Numbered from the stretch's first letter, positions 28,416-35,685 are shown. The stretch: DNA of 64,000 bases from an uncultured candidate division Zixibacteria bacterium (GCA_963713865.1 OY970208.1:800001-864000), one strand, 5' to 3'. Numbers and translations: made by a program. Notes: generated from the letters alone by a model not told the origin.

Positions 28416-29474
28416 TTATTGCATAGATCTGAGTTCAAAGGCTTTTTCAAAATTCTTTGCTTTCAATATTTTCTTTTTTAGACCTTCATAGGGTGGGAAT
28501 GCTCCGCCAAAACCAATAACCCTTCTTGCTTTAGCTATCATTTCTAATTGCTCAGCAGTCCAATTAGGTGATACGAATGTGTTCTTAGGCCTTGGCTCAA
28601 GCGGTTCATATCTCATTGGATAAGCAACAACCCCCCAATCCAAAAGGTCTTTTATCCGATTCAAAAAATCTTCTGATTTATCAAGATGGTTATAAAGACA
28701 ATAAACGATAATTTTTCTACCTCTAATTCCTACAGTATTCAAAATAGTTATGGCTTTTTTAAGAGATGATCTAATAGGATTACTATCATATGCTAATCTT
28801 ACTAAGGGAATTTTAAGTCTTTTAAGTCTTATTGCAACTTCTTCATCCAAAAGTCTTGCATCCAGCCCTTGATTAAAATCAACTTCAAGATTTAATTCCT
28901 CAAGTTCATCAAAGATGTTTTTCCAATATGGAGAAGCAAGAATATTGTTATCCCAGAATACAACTTTATTATGTCCTGGATATATAAGCTTTTTTATTGT
29001 TTTTTTTGCCTTAAATTTAGGCTCCAATACAGGTACTGAGCAAAAAGGACAACTCCTTATGCATCCTCTGGATGAAAAAAGAATGCTTGCTTTCCACTCA
29101 GGTACCAGAGAATAATCGGGTAAGATGTTTTCGACTTTCTTGTATAAACCTTTATGGATTTTAATTCTGTTTTTAAAATTTTCCCGAAGATGATCTTCAC
29201 ATAAAGTAGCATAAATGCCACCTACTATAATATCTGATCTTTTGTATTTTTGGGTATAATGCTGGATAACTTCATGAACTGGTTCCCAGGCATAAGTAAA
29301 AAGACTAGTAATATAGATAATATCTGGCTTAAATCCGTTGTCAGAAAACCCTTGGACAAATGTTACTTTATCCTTTTTCTGCTTGTGATAAGCAGCGAGT
29401 TTAAGAAGACCGAGGGGAGGATAAGGAGTATGATACTTCTTACTCTTTGGAGGTTCGACGAGCAAAATTTTCAT
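28416..29474 (-). CDS. Radical SAM protein with N-terminal B12-binding-like domain
   Basis: YPPLGLLKLA, TSLFTY and VGGIYATL; SRGCIRSCPFC (CxxxCxxC), DNN, DFNQGLDARL. Confidence 0.9.
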   Translation of the reverse strand: MKILLVEPPKSKKYHTPYPPLGLLKLAAYHKQKKDKVTFVQGFSDNGFKPDIIYITSLFTYAWEPVHEVIQHYTQKYKRSDIIVGGIYATLCEDHLRENFKNRIKIHKGLYKKVENILPDYSLVPEWKASILFSSRGCIRSCPFCSVPVLEPKFKAKKTIKKLIYPGHNKVVFWDNNILASPYWKNIFDELEELNLEVDFNQGLDARLLDEEVAIRLKRLKIPLVRLAYDSNPIRSSLKKAITILNTVGIRGRKIIVYCLYNHLDKSEDFLNRIKDLLDWGVVAYPMRYEPLEPRPKNTFVSPNWTAEQLEMIAKARRVIGFGGAFPPYEGLKKKILKAKNFEKAFELRSMQ

Positions 29475-30982
29475 GTTAACAGAATCATAGGATATTCAAA
29501 TCTTATTCCATCACATTTCACGGAATTTATGAAATCCCTGCATTCGGCTTTTAACTTTCCCAGACGAGGGTAACTTTTAGCTATACTTTCATTTACAGTA
29601 GCTAATATCTTTCCGTTGTATTGAAAACCTTGAAGCAGCTCAGGTGTTTCCAAACAAAGAGATTTCTCACGTTTGTCTTCTTGCAGACTATCAAGGTATA
29701 TTAATAAGACTGCAAAAGGGAAGCGACTCAAACTTAGCTTCTTCAAATGCTTTTTTGAAAGTCTTTCTCGGAATTGTTTGTCATGAAGCGCGATTGAAAG
29801 CCCTGCGGGATAAATGTGGTAGACTAAAAACATCCTTTTCTCTGGCTTCTCCTCTTGACGTGCTTCAGAGAAAATATCGACTAGGAATCGAAAACAGCTA
29901 GCGACACCATGGGAATCATGAAAACTTTCCCGAAAAATTTGCTCTAATGATTCGTCTTGTGTTCCGAACACATCAGGAGGCCAATCAATTTTGTGTTTTT
30001 TTTCGGAGACCGAAAATTTAAACAGAGATATTAGTTGCTTTAAGTTCTCTTTATATACAGGGTCATCCCAGACATTTGTAATTTCTCGTTCGCTGGAAAT
30101 CGTACTAACTCCGTAGAACTCTCTTTTTAGGTCGTCGAGTTTTGCAATAAGATAACCAACATCATGAAAAACCGAGGTTAGTAGCCACATAAATTCAAGG
30201 GAAAGTCCTCGATATTTTGGGAAAATACTCTTGAAGTAAGTTTTAAAATCACTTTGATAGCGATCCAGTATGAATAAACCTAACAAGAAAATATGAAAAG
30301 AGTGAAAGTAGTGATCCCTGATATCCAAGGAGCTTTCAAACCTACTTAGGATTTCGAACGAATCGATTCCGGACGTATAGTTGTCATCAGACTTTAAGAG
30401 CTTGGCAATAGTGTCTTTAACGAGCTCTTCCTCTCTCTGCTGATCGAGTTTACTCTTGCTTTTAAGTTTCAGATATTCTTTTGAAAAGTCTTTCAACAAT
30501 GTTCTAAATTTTGAATTTCCTAAGGTAAATGTTGGGATTTTATTTATTACCCATGATGGGTAGTGTCCGACATACTGCGCGGGTGACACAAGTGGAATCA
30601 CTGGGTTTACAGCATCACGAATTAATAAGAGGCGATTTTTTTTGACCAAGATCAGACCGAATCCCTTTTCCCGACAGCTTTCCTCGAAAATGTCCAGAAG
30701 CTGTTCGTCTTGCAAGATGAAAAAGAAATCAAAATCGCAGCCGCCCATCGCCTTTTTCACTTCTTCAGCTAAGATAATTGGGAAAGATTCTGCTGAAGGC
30801 ACTTCCGTAAATGCAATGTACCTCCTAGTCCGAGTGTCTTTAAATAAATAATCTGGTTGCCACCGAACATCGGGTAATTTTCTTGAAAACCGCACTTTAT
30901 CTCTCGGTTGCATAGCACTTGAAGGGAGTTTCCGTGCTTTTGAAATATACTTCCCCAGCTTATGAACAAGATCTGTTGACAT
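29471..30982 (-). CDS. HD-superfamily phosphohydrolase with an N-terminal restriction-endonuclease-like domain
   Basis: RDHYFHS, FHDVGY, HG, IALHD and DSLQE metal-ligand pattern; N-terminal PDYLF...FTEV...GFGLILV. Confidence 0.75.
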   Translation of the reverse strand: MSTDLVHKLGKYISKARKLPSSAMQPRDKVRFSRKLPDVRWQPDYLFKDTRTRRYIAFTEVPSAESFPIILAEEVKKAMGGCDFDFFFILQDEQLLDIFEESCREKGFGLILVKKNRLLLIRDAVNPVIPLVSPAQYVGHYPSWVINKIPTFTLGNSKFRTLLKDFSKEYLKLKSKSKLDQQREEELVKDTIAKLLKSDDNYTSGIDSFEILSRFESSLDIRDHYFHSFHIFLLGLFILDRYQSDFKTYFKSIFPKYRGLSLEFMWLLTSVFHDVGYLIAKLDDLKREFYGVSTISSEREITNVWDDPVYKENLKQLISLFKFSVSEKKHKIDWPPDVFGTQDESLEQIFRESFHDSHGVASCFRFLVDIFSEARQEEKPEKRMFLVYHIYPAGLSIALHDKQFRERLSKKHLKKLSLSRFPFAVLLIYLDSLQEDKREKSLCLETPELLQGFQYNGKILATVNESIAKSYPRLGKLKAECRDFINSVKCDGIRFEYPMILLT

Positions 30983-32025
30983 TATTTTAGTCTCTGCGAT
31001 ATGATTTTTGCTGTTTTCACTAATGCTTTAAGCGCTTCTGCCAAATCCCTCTTTTGTTTGATTTTCAAGGCTCCTATAGTCGTCTCGGTGTAATCATTTA
31101 ATGCCCTTAATAGACTAGCAATAGTATTAATCAATTTTCGAGGGGAAAATACCGGTTTTTGCATTTCTTCTGGGAAAAGAGATATATACTGTTCTCGTGC
31201 TTCCGAAAAAGTAAACGATCTATCTTTGACAAATTCTAAAAGAAGGTTTTTTGCCTTCGCAGCTTGATTCCTGTCTCTTCTTCTCTTTGTTAAGATACCG
31301 GCATCCCTTATTTGTTCAGCGCGGTCCACAAAACCAGCCGTAACTTTTTCGAACAATGCTTTTCTAATGTCATCAGGAGAGAATTTATCTTTTAACTCAG
31401 GGAAATTGCGGAAGGCAGGCTCTACTATTTTTTCTTCTATCTCAACTGCATAGCTGTAATAGCTTCTGTTCAGTTTATCATAGATCTGGTTTCTCAGGTA
31501 TTGCGGCCATCTAAGAAATCTCACCCTACTCTCGGCGGTCTCTTGGTCCATACCAGTCCTTACAGTTAGTTGTTTTATAAGCTCTTTTTCAACGTCAGTA
31601 TCTGGCGTACATGCGACTCTAATCTGCTCCTTTATTGAGGCAACTATTTTTTCTAAAGCCCTTGCTTGTTCTAGTGTGTCCCATCCTTCTTGGTTCATGT
31701 GTATTTGAAACATTGTAGTAAGAATATCAATGTGTCCACCCGGAGGTAAAACATATGCCGGTATTTTATCTCGATTGGTAGCAATTGCTGCTTTCCATCT
31801 CCGTTCGCCATCTATGAGCTGATATTTTATTTTACCTTCTTCTGTGGGGAGCTTTTTTATGATTATTGGTACTATTACGCCATATTTCGCAACTGATTCC
31901 TTCAATCGTAGGAAGTGTTTGTCCTTAGAGAAATCCTCATTCCGTGGATTCTCGTGACTTGGCTTAATATGTACTGGCGACGGCCACTCAAGTTTGCCGA
32001 AAATGTCTCCATTGCTCATATTCAT
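30982..32025 (-). CDS. ParB/Srx N-terminal domain protein without a partner ParA
   Basis: NPR...L-x-ESV-x3-GVIVPI...YQLIDGERRWKA. Confidence 0.88.
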   Translation of the reverse strand: MNMSNGDIFGKLEWPSPVHIKPSHENPRNEDFSKDKHFLRLKESVAKYGVIVPIIIKKLPTEEGKIKYQLIDGERRWKAAIATNRDKIPAYVLPPGGHIDILTTMFQIHMNQEGWDTLEQARALEKIVASIKEQIRVACTPDTDVEKELIKQLTVRTGMDQETAESRVRFLRWPQYLRNQIYDKLNRSYYSYAVEIEEKIVEPAFRNFPELKDKFSPDDIRKALFEKVTAGFVDRAEQIRDAGILTKRRRDRNQAAKAKNLLLEFVKDRSFTFSEAREQYISLFPEEMQKPVFSPRKLINTIASLLRALNDYTETTIGALKIKQKRDLAEALKALVKTAKIISQRLK

Positions 32026-32159
32026 TCCTTTATTAATGCCTTTTTGGCTGAATCTGTTTTTTGTTAATTTAAATTTCTTGCTACCTTTTTATTGTATGCC
32101 ATTCTCTTTCATAAATCAAGCCCTTTTTTTCAAAATTCCAGCCCTAATTTGAGAACTGC

Positions 32160-32270
32160 AGGTGTGAATAGCGTGTAGCGAGCACCACCCCAGCTTGAAA
32201 TCACAATTTGTGATTTCAAGTTTTTGAATTCACTATCAGTCAGCTGAAACATAAAATCATCGGGAAATCT
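32160..32270 (-). pseudogene. Remnant of an ORF6N-domain DNA-binding protein gene
   Basis: Translates to RFPDDFMFQLTDSEFKNLKSQIVISSWGGARY; contains palindrome CTTGAAATCACAATTTGTGATTTCAAG at 32194-32220. Confidence 0.75.
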
Positions 32271-32271
32271 T

Positions 32272-32613
32272 TTATTTTAAATTCTTGAGAATCTGACTAA
32301 TCTGCGGTTTGATCTTGGGTATTCTTTTCTTTATTGTTTCCCAGACGAGTTTATAATCCACTCCGAAGTAAAAATGAATTAATCTATCTCTCATTCCTGC
32401 CATTTCTTTCCAGGGAACTCCGGGATGAGCCTGTCTTATTTCATCCGGGATTTGCTTGGTGGCTTCTCCTATGATCTCGAATTTTCGGATAACTGCGCTT
32501 ACTGTTTTATCATCTTTTTTAAATCTTTCAAAATCCATTCCCCGCACAAACTTCTCGGTGCTTTCCATCGCCTTTAAAATGTCTTTCAGATAAAGTTTAT
32601 AATCTCTTTTCAT
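32272..32613 (-). CDS. HepT-like HEPN RNase toxin (DUF86)
   Basis: EIIGEA, PWK[17 protein letters not shown] (RxxxxH). Confidence 0.92.
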
Positions 32614-32900
32614 AAAGAGATAGCCTCCTTTAATACCGATTTCTTAATCTCTCCTCTTAACGCCCTCTTTGGAACAACATCTACTTTTCGCTTGAGCTTT
32701 TCTTCCAGGAATAGCGCCAGCCCGGAAAGGTCGAAAAGGTCAGCGTGCTCTTCGAAATCCACCAGGATATCAATGTCACTGGTCTTCGATTGTTCGCTTC
32801 GTGTCACTGAACCAAATAATTCTATCTTTTTAACCCGGTATCTTTTCAATTCTCCTTTTATCCCTCTTAGAATTTTGATAATTCCCTCTTTAGATTTCAT
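32610..32900 (-). CDS. MNT nucleotidyltransferase antitoxin
   Basis: LFGSVTR-x6-SDIDILV; 4-bp overlap with the HEPN gene. Confidence 0.92.
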
Positions 32901-33051: not shown

Positions 33052-35685
33052 TCAAAACTCCAGCCCCATTCTGAAATAGAGCTTATCGATTTTCTTCTGT
33101 GCTCTTCCGTAGGCAAGTTCGATCGGTCCTATGGGGGTTGAGACAGAGAGGATGGAAAGGATTGAATTTTTTAAATTCTTCAGCTTGATCGACTCTAAGT
33201 TAGGCCAGGTGTTTCCGGAATCGTATCTCAGGGTAAAATACCATCTTTTAAGGAACTTATATCTTAATCCCAAGTTGAAGTAGAAAAGCTTATCCCCTTT
33301 TAGCTCCTGTTCATAAAAACCACCTAAGGTTCCAAACCCGCCTAAGACAAACTTCTCATTTAAGGGTAGGTCGCCATCGGATAGAGCGATAGCTATTTTC
33401 GGATGGAAATTCAATTTACTGCCTAAGGGGAAATAGGATTCTAAAGAAGAGAAGAATTTCCTGTAGCTTAAGCTCCCTCCGAGAATTTTCCCGGCTAATT
33501 CTAAACTGAGATGGTGATACCTGCCTTTATCCGGGAAAGGAAGCTTGTCCAGATCGTCCACTATGGACCTGAAGGTCAAGCTGGTAATCTGGTAGTCGTT
33601 TTTTAAGCTTGTGCTTTCAAATTCGGTTTTAACTCTCTCTATCTTCCCTTCTAAAGAAGCTTTGCCCAATCTTGAAATCTGCTGTCCAAAAGAGAAAAGA
33701 GCTCCCCTTCTTTTTTCGTCAAAGGAATCTATCTTTTTATGTTCTGAGTATATCCTTCGCTCTTCCCTCTTTAAATAAAGGTTAAGTTTATAAGTCAGGT
33801 AACTTTTGAAAATCCGGTCAGCTTTGAAATTTAAACTGTAATCTTCCTTCTTTTTACCATATTGCAGGTGAGTGAAGATCTCATTCCCGATTCCAAAGAT
33901 ATTGTTATCTCCGAATTCAACAAACCCCTCAGTATAATATTCATCGTTGTAATGAGCCCCTCCCCTTAAAAAAGTGAACTTTTTCTCCTGCAGGTTAAGT
34001 TTTAAAACCTTACCATCTTTTTCGGTTGACACTTTTAAAAATATCCCCTCAAAAAGTCCGGTGCTGTAAAGATTAGAAAGCCCTTTTTCGATTTTCCTTG
34101 AATTGTAAGGACTGCCAGCCCGAAGGGGTAGATTCCTAGTCACCATCCAGTTTTTAGTCCTTTTGTTCCCGGAAAGCTCTATCTTAGAGATAATCCCCTC
34201 ATCTATCTCCACTTTTAAAACTCCACCCAGGGAGTCATATTCTATTTTTTTGAAATGAGCCAGGGAATAACCTGAATTTTGATATGATTTAAGAATCTGA
34301 TTTAATTTTTCCTGAAGGACTTGGCAATTCATAACCTTCTGGGAAGGGAAAAGGATTTTCTCCTGCAGCTCTTTTGAGCTGAAAAGTTTGTTACCTGAAA
34401 AATCTATACTATTGAAGGGCGGGTTTTCGCTGAGATGATAAATCAAGAAATAATCCTGGCTGGATCTGGAAAGCTCAGCCTGAACCTCCTTGAAATAACC
34501 TGAGGAATAAAGCTCTTTCAATTCAGATTTTATATCTGACAAAGATACTTTATCTCCTGCTCTTATTTTTAAAATATCTTTAAAAAAACCAGCTGTTAAG
34601 ATTTTGTTCCCTGAAATTTTAACTTCACCAATAGGATAAAGAGAATCAGGGGAAAATCCGTTAGAGGCGGATAAAAGAGTTTTCAACTCCGAGATTAAAC
34701 TATCCGCTGTCCGTTCTCCAATTTTGATAAGCTCGTTTGCTTTTTCAAAATCGATTGAGGAGTAAGAGGAAAGGTCCGGTGAAATTACAAAATCGGCTTT
34801 TTTCAGCTCCTGCTCTTTTCTCTCCAGGGTCATTATGGATGTAGATTGATTGGCAATATCTAACGGGTCTTTGATCTGGGATGAAGATAAAAGCTCGGAG
34901 GAGGTGTTGATGGCAATTACGAAATCTGCCCCCATATTTCTGGTCACCTGAACCGGAATCGGATCAACCAAACCCCCGTCCACTAAAAGCTTCCCCTCCA
35001 GCTCCACCGGGGTGAAGATTAAAGGGACAGCCATAGTAGCTCTCAAGGCTTCAGAAAGGTCACCTTTGCTTAAAACGATCTCCCGACCTGAGACCAGATC
35101 TGTAGTTACTGCCCGGAAAGGTATTTTAAACTTGTCGAAATCTGAGCCTGCTTCGAAATTTGCCTGCATGGTGAGCTGGGTAAAAAGGTTGGTCAGCTTC
35201 TGGCCTGAGGTCAGGGCTTTAGGGATTGAGGGTTTCAGCCCTTTAAAGTAGATTTGAAAAAGATATTTCTCACTTTCCTCCCTTTGTGAAAGAAGTAAAG
35301 AAAGACGGGGAGGGGTATCGCTGAAAAGGTCCTGCCAGTTGGTCTCCAGAACAAGTTTCTCCAAATCCCTGGCTGAATAGCCACAGGCGTAAAGTCCTCC
35401 GATTACTCCACCCATGCTGGTTCCTGCTATAAAGTCAACCGGGATTTTTTCATTTTCAAAAACCTTTAAAAACCCTATCTGGGCAAGGCCTTTAGCACCG
35501 CCGCCAGCAAGTGCCAGCCCTATTTTTCCATTATAATTTGAAAGAGGGAAAGGGTGAAAAAGCTCCCCCGGCTTTAATTTGTTTTCTTCAAGCCTAATTA
35601 CTATTTTCCCTTCTTCCGCAGATAAGCTTATCGCCAGAGAAAGGATTAAGAAAAAGCAAGAGAGAGTTTTTTTAAGTAGAGGCAT
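33052..35685 (-). CDS. Patatin-POTRA-Omp85 barrel protein (type Vd / PlpD-like)
   Basis: Signal peptide, GGGAKG, GTSMG and DGG motifs; several POTRA repeats; barrel ending in F. Confidence 0.9.
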   Translation of the reverse strand: MPLLKKTLSCFFLILSLAISLSAEEGKIVIRLEENKLKPGELFHPFPLSNYNGKIGLALAGGGAKGLAQIGFLKVFENEKIPVDFIAGTSMGGVIGGLYACGYSARDLEKLVLETNWQDLFSDTPPRLSLLLSQREESEKYLFQIYFKGLKPSIPKALTSGQKLTNLFTQLTMQANFEAGSDFDKFKIPFRAVTTDLVSGREIVLSKGDLSEALRATMAVPLIFTPVELEGKLLVDGGLVDPIPVQVTRNMGADFVIAINTSSELLSSSQIKDPLDIANQSTSIMTLERKEQELKKADFVISPDLSSYSSIDFEKANELIKIGERTADSLISELKTLLSASNGFSPDSLYPIGEVKISGNKILTAGFFKDILKIRAGDKVSLSDIKSELKELYSSGYFKEVQAELSRSSQDYFLIYHLSENPPFNSIDFSGNKLFSSKELQEKILFPSQKVMNCQVLQEKLNQILKSYQNSGYSLAHFKKIEYDSLGGVLKVEIDEGIISKIELSGNKRTKNWMVTRNLPLRAGSPYNSRKIEKGLSNLYSTGLFEGIFLKVSTEKDGKVLKLNLQEKKFTFLRGGAHYNDEYYTEGFVEFGDNNIFGIGNEIFTHLQYGKKKEDYSLNFKADRIFKSYLTYKLNLYLKREERRIYSEHKKIDSFDEKRRGALFSFGQQISRLGKASLEGKIERVKTEFESTSLKNDYQITSLTFRSIVDDLDKLPFPDKGRYHHLSLELAGKILGGSLSYRKFFSSLESYFPLGSKLNFHPKIAIALSDGDLPLNEKFVLGGFGTLGGFYEQELKGDKLFYFNLGLRYKFLKRWYFTLRYDSGNTWPNLESIKLKNLKNSILSILSVSTPIGPIELAYGRAQKKIDKLYFRMGLEF

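Follow-up and report, generated by a model that had tools for sequence, protein, structure and literature searches.

A three-gene operon convergent with purA

The subject of this study is a three-gene operon on the minus strand of a 64,000-nucleotide (nt) stretch of DNA from an uncultured candidate division Zixibacteria bacterium (GCA_963713865.1, OY970208.1:800001-864000; the whole stretch is hereafter called the window, and positions are counted from its first letter). An earlier inspection of this DNA, referred to below as the sequence-only reading, had picked out positions 28416-32025 as a candidate undescribed system for defence or for the modification of nucleotides or DNA. In the order of transcription, the genes encode a ParB/Srx-like protein of 347 amino acids (aa; 345 aa from the second Met), recognized from its open reading frame (ORF) and a match to Pfam PF02195 (30982-32025); a 503-aa protein, read from its ORF, in which an endonuclease-fold domain is joined to an HD domain (29471-30982); and a 352-aa radical S-adenosylmethionine (SAM) protein, recognized from its ORF, its structural model and its fold matches (28416-29474). 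We conclude that operons ending in this highly conserved radical SAM enzyme form a widespread group of the defence type, so far undescribed, of which the triad is a rare variant.

The three genes are one operon. Read directly from the DNA, the junction between the ParB-like gene and the middle gene is TAATG, an overlap of 1 nt, and that between the middle gene and the radical SAM gene is ATGA, an overlap of 4 nt. The operon is convergent with purA, and 14 nt separate the purA stop codon from that of the radical SAM gene. The tight coupling and the convergence on purA had both been claimed by the sequence-only reading, and both are borne out by the ORFs and their junctions. The G+C content of the operon is 0.34-0.40, compared with 0.42-0.46 for clpP and purA.

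The ParB-like protein

Residues 19-92 of the first protein form a ParB_N domain (Pfam PF02195, E 6.2e-12, 45.9 bits against a cut-off of 26.3), whilst the remainder, also encoded within 30982-32025, is helical and peculiar to a narrow family of 59 matches with a length of ~345 aa. The motif DGERR, located at residues 72-76 of the 347-aa frame (31798-31812, minus strand), is invariant in the alignment of 31 family sequences, as are N24, F-x-I-H and a Trp. We take DGERR to be the NTP/CTP-binding box of ParB-type proteins, and, judged from the alignment, the protein carries an intact conserved GxxR (GERR) nucleotide-binding box, through which it is predicted to bind nucleotide. The description of this protein as a ParB/Srx domain with an IDGERR motif and no ParA partner was therefore correct, given that the Pfam match lies above the cut-off and that no ParA-like ORF lies next to the gene, the neighbours being purA and an MNT/HepT pair (the search was of these neighbours, and the whole genome was not searched for ParA).

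Two closer assignments were considered and rejected. A partition ParB of a ParABS system is disfavoured by the absence of an adjacent ParA and by a score of 39.2 bits against the NCBIfam parB_part cut-off of 58.45, and Noc by a score of 42.9 bits against the NCBIfam cut-off of 315. The protein has no match to DndB in Pfam, nor to DndB or DpdB in PADLOC, where its match is a marginal one to MTase_II (E 0.0016) over the ParB domain. Some of its homologues are labelled "partition protein" by the Joint Genome Institute (JGI).

A middle protein with endonuclease-fold and HD domains

The middle protein has no match in Pfam, PADLOC or NCBIfam. A word-indexed search gave 23 homologues, and a profile search of 1.84 billion representatives gave 1292 at E ≤0.001, including 148 at E ≤1e-30. 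Its AlphaFold model is of good quality (predicted local distance difference test, pLDDT, 89.8; predicted template modelling score, pTM, 0.91) and was compared with known structures using VIA-align. Residues 1-127 (30602-30982, minus strand) have a restriction-endonuclease-like, PD-(D/E)xK-type fold, for which the matches are PaqCI (Z 9.5, 122 residues aligned), AF1548 (Z 7.7), NucS (Z 7.2) and SdaI (Z 6.7). We read this domain, from its alignment, as a non-catalytic or atypical endonuclease-fold domain.

A helical linker and an HD-superfamily phosphohydrolase domain occupy residues ~143-503 (29474-30556, minus strand), with H224, H227, H273-D274, H358, H400(-D401), D431 and R438 as the characteristic residues. 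H224, H227, G235, W266, H273, D274, H358, H400, D431 and R438 are invariant in all 80 aligned sequences, and the six His/Asp ligands presumably fit an HD centre of the two-metal type. By VIA-align, the closest structures are the C-domain of PPX/GppA (Z 10.1) and class I phosphodiesterases (PDEs; Z 9-10), followed by the HD hydrolase 2pq7 (Z 8.0), HD-GYP domains (Z 7.1-7.3) and SAMHD1 (Z 7.2); the top matches all belong to the HD superfamily, with Z scores of 7-10.1 that are modest for a mostly helical domain. No Pfam match covers the HD region in the window protein or in any of 30 sampled relatives, Foldseek against the PDB had no match to the middle protein at E ≤0.001, and sequence and profile searches of the PDB gave nothing significant for it. 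Hence, of the "PD..E" N-terminus and HD domain that had been proposed, the restriction-endonuclease fold, the HD fold and the H/D pattern stand, but the nuclease residues are not conserved. A predicted complex of the ParB-like and HD proteins had a score of 0.23 and a mark of 0.32.

A radical SAM enzyme with a B12-binding-like domain

The third protein matches the Pfam families B12-binding (E 5.6e-5) and Radical_SAM (E 0.0016; 19.1 bits against a cut-off of 29.5), both below the gathering score. It contains the [4Fe-4S]/SAM cluster motif CxxxCxxC as C138-x3-C142-x2-C145 (29040-29063, minus strand); these three cysteines are invariant in 47 of 47 aligned relatives, and no other Cys is. In the structural model (pLDDT 95.2), a Rossmann-type B12-binding-like domain (~residues 1-110) precedes a radical SAM barrel (gene at 28416-29474). 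The best structural match is AprD4 (Z 25.9, root-mean-square deviation 2.9, 331 of 352 residues aligned), and other near-full-length matches are MgmA (Z 22.2), MiaB (Z 20.7), RimO (Z 19.9), TsrM (Z 19.8), OxsB (Z 17.8), CysS (Z 16.8) and TokK (Z 15.3). Foldseek agrees (MiaB, E 9.7e-10). Residues 1-108 align with cobalamin-binding domains (Z 9-11), and viperin (5vsl) aligns to the barrel alone (Z 9.3). Sequence and profile searches of the PDB gave no significant relative of the protein, and PADLOC gave no match to it, including to any viperin model.

By its model, the product of gene 3 is a genuine radical SAM enzyme with a B12-binding-type N-domain, for which cobalamin is a candidate cofactor. 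The earlier label of a "B12-type" radical SAM enzyme is thus sound as regards the CxxxCxxC motif and the B12-binding-like fold, but less so as regards dependence on B12, as the best match, AprD4, is not known to bind cobalamin. The genome has no match to CobS or CbiB, but it encodes five other B12-binding domains above the cut-off, so that cobalamin may be imported.

The triad in other genomes and a defence hot spot

The same overlapping triad, in the same order, is found at L001/L041, where it is flanked by enolase and an MNT/HEPN pair, then DivIC and RecO; at L002, where it follows birA; and at L070, where a contig edge cuts the ParB-like gene. Identities to the window proteins are 53-62% for the ParB-like protein, 53-60% for the HD protein and 61-73% for the radical SAM protein. 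Gene order, the conservation of which had been named as a check on the proposed module, is therefore the same at no fewer than three further places, and the triad travels as a unit. Contigs of identical length that recur in the three homologue lists point, indirectly, to ~10 more contigs with two or three of the genes; for the distant homologues of the HD protein (P0019-P0023) and of the ParB-like protein, this comparison of lengths gave no connection.

The three genes do not occur only together. One locus (L020) has the ParB and radical SAM genes and no HD gene. In G078, a genome of the same class, a ParB-like gene (31% identity over 331 aa) and an HD-family gene (26% identity, profile E 5e-130) occur without the radical SAM gene, and its slot is filled by a D12-class N6-adenine DNA methylase of the Dam-like type (Pfam E 2.5e-18; PADLOC PD-Lambda-5_B, E 1e-79). 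The link to DNA modification that had been proposed gains plausibility from this methylase and from phage relatives of the radical SAM gene that lie beside DNA methyltransferase genes (see below).

Within the phylum, the middle gene is found in four of 285 genomes, including neither of the two genomes of the same genus and none of the eight of the same family, and a profile search of the phylum added no full-length HD-family locus; the radical SAM gene is found in 10 of the 285. Relatives carry other genes at the site downstream of purA: in G208, HsdM, HsdS and HsdR of a Type I restriction-modification (R-M) system, a YgjP-like piece and an MNT/HEPN pair, and in G206, a HEPN/MNT pair, a methylase remnant, a PLD-like nuclease and a duplicated purA 3′ end. 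The purA-downstream site is a defence hot spot. In both of these genomes, the final 25-35 codons of purA are repeated ~1.1 kb beyond the intact gene (L116, G206:C8, 5118-5237; L115, G208:C24, 6768-6869), and the repeat resembles the scar of a site-specific integration at the purA 3′ end; a search of the window for such a duplicate of the purA 3′ end found none, unlike in G206 and G208.

This distribution bears on the possibility that the operon has no part in defence and is instead a housekeeping or regulatory module, for example, a ParB-type DNA organizer, a metabolic HD hydrolase and a radical SAM enzyme that modifies a cofactor or RNA. The good structural matches include a tRNA-modifying enzyme, MiaB, and one that modifies a ribosomal protein, RimO, and the JGI label "partition protein" points in the same direction. 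MiaB/RimO-type enzymes, however, have three conserved N-domain cysteines for a second cluster, and these are absent here, where only the three SAM-cluster cysteines are invariant. Together with the sporadic occurrence (none of eight same-family genomes), the location at a hot spot where relatives carry R-M genes, the absence of an adjacent ParA, and the presence of the radical SAM family in phages and plasmids, this makes a non-defence role very improbable.

The radical SAM gene closes many other operons

The radical SAM family is large (5359 matches at E ≤0.001, the top 120 of which are at 69-100% identity), and the source names span several phyla. We examined a metagenome sample of 80 loci that carry a relative at 49-86% identity. 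The upstream ORF is co-directional with the radical SAM gene at 67 of 71 loci; the gaps between the two range from -4 to 224 nt, apart from a single gap of 560 nt, and the -4 overlap occurs at nine of the 67. By comparison, the downstream ORF is co-directional at 33 of 59 loci. The radical SAM gene nearly always closes an operon.

HD-family and ParB-like genes accompany the radical SAM gene at two of the 80 loci, and other operons do so at the remaining 78, such that the enzyme cannot depend on these two partners. The proposal of one module consequently stands in that the triad co-travels in order, but the module is not a closed one. For the labels of the upstream partners that follow, one or two representatives of each cluster were scanned and the result was extended to the rest of the cluster. 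A Type IIG restriction endonuclease-methyltransferase is the upstream partner at 25 of 80 loci, often after a HerA-like ATPase and a 384-aa protein; MORC-like GHKL ATPases are found at 10 loci, DUF3800 at five, HicB at three, and DarT with an ADP-ribosylglycohydrolase and a PIN protein at two to three. The commonest direct upstream gene (18 of 80 loci) encodes an unnamed protein of ~460-500 aa, typically ~465 aa (e.g., L050:2727-4229, L040:5529-6941 and L087:2047-3459), with weak, sub-threshold matches to the 5′-nucleotidase family NT5C (E 3.7e-5 and 1.5e-4) and no PADLOC match. Where neighbours could be scored, 43 of 68 loci have one of a DNA-defence or toxin-antitoxin type. In genomes of the phylum, the partners include DndB/DpdB-like proteins, one of them HEPN-fused, and a 479-aa protein of the window's ParB-like family (profile E 1.9e-57). 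Eighteen other partner proteins of the radical SAM gene were scanned with the HD profile, and none has an HD-like domain by this measure.

The Type IIG loci share a recurrent cassette: the 384-aa protein, a ~570-aa HerA-like ATPase, a ~1090-aa Type IIG protein, an optional insert and the radical SAM gene (L026, L028, L037, L040, L046, L054, L057, L083, L086 and others). The insert can be DUF3800, the ~465-aa NT5C-like protein, HicB, or DarT with the glycohydrolase and PIN genes, and the slot between the Type IIG and radical SAM genes behaves as an insertion site for small toxin-antitoxin or defence genes.

At the enolase ... DivIC-RecO site, four related genomes have kept the radical SAM gene (77-87% identity, compared with 86-95% for enolase and 66-91% for RecO), while the genes upstream of it vary: ParB plus HD, GHKL plus a 277-aa or a 294-aa protein, or GHKL alone. 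These loci (L001, L018, L030 and L031) make the site a further hot spot, and in each of them the radical SAM gene is the immediate upstream neighbour of DivIC.

Such a pattern could also arise if the radical SAM gene were independent of its neighbours, either as an autonomous unit of one gene or as a resident of hot-spot edges, and simply sat at the 3′ end of any operon upstream of it; the ParB and HD genes would then be a separate two-gene system, and the triad a juxtaposition. The 78 loci with other partners, the ParB and HD genes that occur without it in G078, and its resident-like behaviour next to enolase, where its divergence lies between those of enolase and RecO and the upstream genes turn over, all speak for this view. 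Set against them are the 4-nt ATGA overlap with the HD gene and the nine similar overlaps elsewhere, the movement of the triad as a unit to at least three chromosomal sites (purA, enolase and birA), and the excess of co-orientation upstream over downstream, which points to co-transcription. We regard a mere juxtaposition as unlikely.

Relatives in phages and plasmids

Relatives of the radical SAM gene are encoded in 18 of 50,697 phage records. Phage copies are located in modules for replication and modification. In Marinitoga camini virus 1, a relative at 50% identity is convergent with HerA and NurA-like exonuclease genes; in Clostridium phage phiCT453B, the relative lies between RusA and terminase genes; in an Oscillospiraceae phage, it overlaps a DNA methyltransferase gene; in LoVEphage, it is near PAPS reductase and methyltransferase genes; and in a prophage of genome G145, it adjoins a terminase gene. 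The Marinitoga genes (L117, 5992-9818) lie in an accessory region near resolvase and repressor genes, and in this temperate phage of a thermophile they resemble a prophage-borne defence cassette. Relatives at ~28% identity are present in 23 plasmid records, among them pNL1, in which the gene order is DGQHR protein, radical SAM protein and ATPase. Look-alike clusters of the Atlas are rich in viral members, which is a lead only. No relatives turned up in viral_contigs with either the radical SAM protein or the HD profile, and tblastn with the HD protein found none in plasmids and one weak partial match in phages.

The surrounding island

Upstream of the operon, the MntA/HepT (MNT-HEPN) toxin-antitoxin pair is located at 32272-32900 on the minus strand (Pfam HepT-like, E 5.6e-32, and NTP_transf_2, E 6.5e-16; PADLOC PDC-S09, E 2.6e-28). 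It is part of the same island, and is at most a candidate member of the three-gene system. Between the HepT and ParB-like genes, a 40-codon remnant of an ORF6N domain (32133-32252, minus strand) aligns to positions 44-73 of the 86-position Pfam model, with an E value of 5.7e-4 that is below the cut-off. Accordingly, of the two neighbours that the sequence-only reading had named, Pfam confirms the MNT-HEPN pair, and the match of the ORF6N remnant is sub-threshold. An inverted repeat with a 14-bp stem (32192-32222) lies within the remnant. A consensus scan placed a weak promoter-like site, TTGATT-17-TACAAT (9 of 12 matches), 5′ of the ParB-like gene on the minus strand (32091-32119), in a region in which 12 such sites were found compared with 13.1 expected after shuffling. 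The island is bounded by a gene for an 877-aa protein in which a patatin-like phospholipase is fused to POTRA repeats and an Omp85 barrel (33052-35685, minus strand), which is kept in G206 at 75% identity.

A proposed restriction-like cassette with a radical SAM enzyme

We propose that the operon is a restriction-like cassette directed against mobile elements, in which the radical SAM enzyme acts on DNA, and to this statement as a whole we give a probability of about one in two. From the observed gene order, folds, motifs, sporadic distribution, hot spot, diversity of partners and one methylase swap, we infer both its biochemical steps and a defence phenotype. The ParB-like protein would bind nucleotide through its DGERR box and load onto, or sense, DNA. 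The middle protein would be the effector: its degenerate endonuclease-fold domain may dock on DNA or on a partner, and its HD domain, which has enough His and Asp residues for a two-metal centre, would hydrolyse phosphodiester or nucleotide phosphate bonds. The radical SAM enzyme would be the constant component, common to DNA-defence operons and to phage DNA-modification modules, and would most likely carry out radical chemistry on DNA or on a nucleotide that is to be incorporated into DNA, much as the methyltransferase of an R-M system marks self DNA. That its chemistry takes place on DNA is probable, and is favoured because most of the partners are nucleotide-driven, DNA-bound machines with nuclease-type effectors, because a methylase can take its slot, and because the phage copies occur in a DNA-modification context.

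The same enzyme could instead work in the manner of viperin, altering the sugar of a free nucleotide to yield an antiviral analogue or a signal, whilst the HD protein and the ParB-like NTPase supply, trim or detoxify nucleotides. AprD4, a sugar 1,2-diol dehydratase, is the best structural match by 3.7 Z units over the best methylase, MgmA, and viperin uses a dehydration chemistry comparable to that of AprD4. The nearest structures to the HD domain are PPX/GppA and cyclic-nucleotide phosphodiesterases, and the partner cluster with NT5C-like matches, found at 18 loci, would also suit an enzyme of nucleotide metabolism. On the other side of the balance, most partners are DNA-bound machines (ParB, DndB/DpdB, MORC-like GHKL, Type IIG R-M and HerA), a DNA methylase replaces the radical SAM gene in G078, the phage copies lie beside DNA methylases, and the likeness to AprD4 may reflect merely a common two-domain architecture. 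We consider chemistry on free nucleotides quite unlikely.

A number of observations weigh against the restriction-like cassette that we favour. ParB-like and HD-family genes are rare companions of the radical SAM gene, and the methylase swap is a single case. The radical SAM gene also ends operons that have their own methylase (Type IIG) or are toxin-antitoxin-like (DarT/glycohydrolase/PIN and HicB), which is a poor fit to a self-marking role. The candidate catalytic positions of the endonuclease-fold domain are not conserved (D44 in 20 of 80 sequences, D or E at position 59 in 35, E74 in 38 and K77 in 27), and HD domains include many nucleotidases that are not nucleases. AprD4 acts, according to the title of its PDB entry, on a small-molecule sugar and not on DNA. 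The partner labels are extrapolated as described above, and PADLOC-DB v2.0.0 has no system model for the HD or radical SAM proteins and gives the ParB-like protein only its marginal MTase_II match. The methylase-containing and toxin-antitoxin operons, the single swap and a sugar dehydratase as the nearest structure keep alive both the viperin-like alternative and that of a juxtaposed radical SAM gene.

A more specific form of the restriction-like reading, which we put forward as possible and tentative, is that the radical SAM enzyme installs an undescribed DNA modification, on the base or the deoxyribose, that serves a whole family of defence operons and phages as a self-mark or an anti-restriction mark, and that in this operon the ParB-like clamp and the HD effector destroy DNA without it. 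We know of no radical SAM enzyme that writes self/non-self marks on DNA. If the restriction-like reading holds, a large conserved enzyme family, named by no family library that we searched, would be a shared component of DNA-directed immunity across phyla, phages, plasmids and defence islands, and a radical SAM-dependent DNA mark, if found, would extend the known types of epigenetic or hypermodified DNA and supply a new enzyme tool. The pair of ParB-like and HD genes is compact and tractable, and the occurrence of either a methylase or a radical SAM gene in the third slot is a natural experiment on what the radical SAM enzyme contributes.

Comparison with known systems

The triad had been said to match no named system, and PADLOC, Pfam and NCBIfam give none for it, nor does any of the three put a name to the HD family or the radical SAM family. 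In the full-text literature, the combination of a radical SAM protein with ParB, DndB or MORC as a defence or DNA-modification system was not found, with the limit that supplementary tables, e.g., those of PMC3632139 and PMC10853773, lay outside the search and may mention such pairs. According to these two papers, ParB-superfamily domains occur in fusions with HNH, PD-(D/E)xK or HEPN nucleases and are tied to R-M and DNA-modification systems (PMC3632139, PMC10853773). Radical SAM proteins appear in the relevant literature passages seen only in other contexts.

Among individual components, the prokaryotic viperins (pVips) resemble gene 3 in being radical SAM enzymes encoded among defence genes, but they lack a B12-binding-like N-domain and are known as stand-alone genes. 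AprD4 (PDB 6fd2), MgmA (9ccb), TsrM (6wte), TokK (7kdx), CysS (9n1b) and OxsB (5ul2) share with it the architecture of a Rossmann B12-binding-like domain and a CxxxCxxC barrel; AprD4 and the class B enzymes differ in sequence (12-16% identity), in length (417-731 aa compared with 352 aa) and in context, which is antibiotic or cofactor biosynthesis, whereas that of the window family is defence and phages. The HD phosphohydrolases (PPX/GppA, class I PDEs, HD-GYP and SAMHD1) have the helical fold and the H...HD...H...H...D ligands in common with the middle protein, which differs from them in being undetected by the Pfam HD models and in its fusion to an endonuclease-fold N-domain. The HD nuclease of Cas3 is a further comparison within this superfamily.

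Of the complete systems, PD-lambda-5 has been described as a compacted prophage R-M plus abortive infection (Abi) system (Vassallo et al. 2022, PMC9519451). The G078 methylase is alike in matching PADLOC PD-Lambda-5_B, as given above, but the ParB-like proteins of the window and G078 and the HD-like protein of G078 match no PD-Lambda-5 model, and the window has no methylase. A further comparison is with the defence systems linked to DNA modification that contain a ParB-superfamily protein, namely those of DndB (Dnd phosphorothioation), DpdB (Dpd 7-deazaguanine), SspE and DUF262/GmrSD. The genes for DndACDE, DpdA/C and SspABCD are absent from the window operon, the window ParB-like protein hits ParB_N and not DndB, and there is no PADLOC match to Ssp; furthermore, none of these systems uses a radical SAM protein, whereas the candidate modifying enzyme of the window is one. 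Like the triad, however, they are accessory operons in which a ParB/Srx-fold NTPase is found together with domains of the nuclease type and an enzyme for DNA modification, and genes of the DGQHR type, to which DndB and DpdB belong, directly adjoin relatives of the radical SAM gene at other loci.

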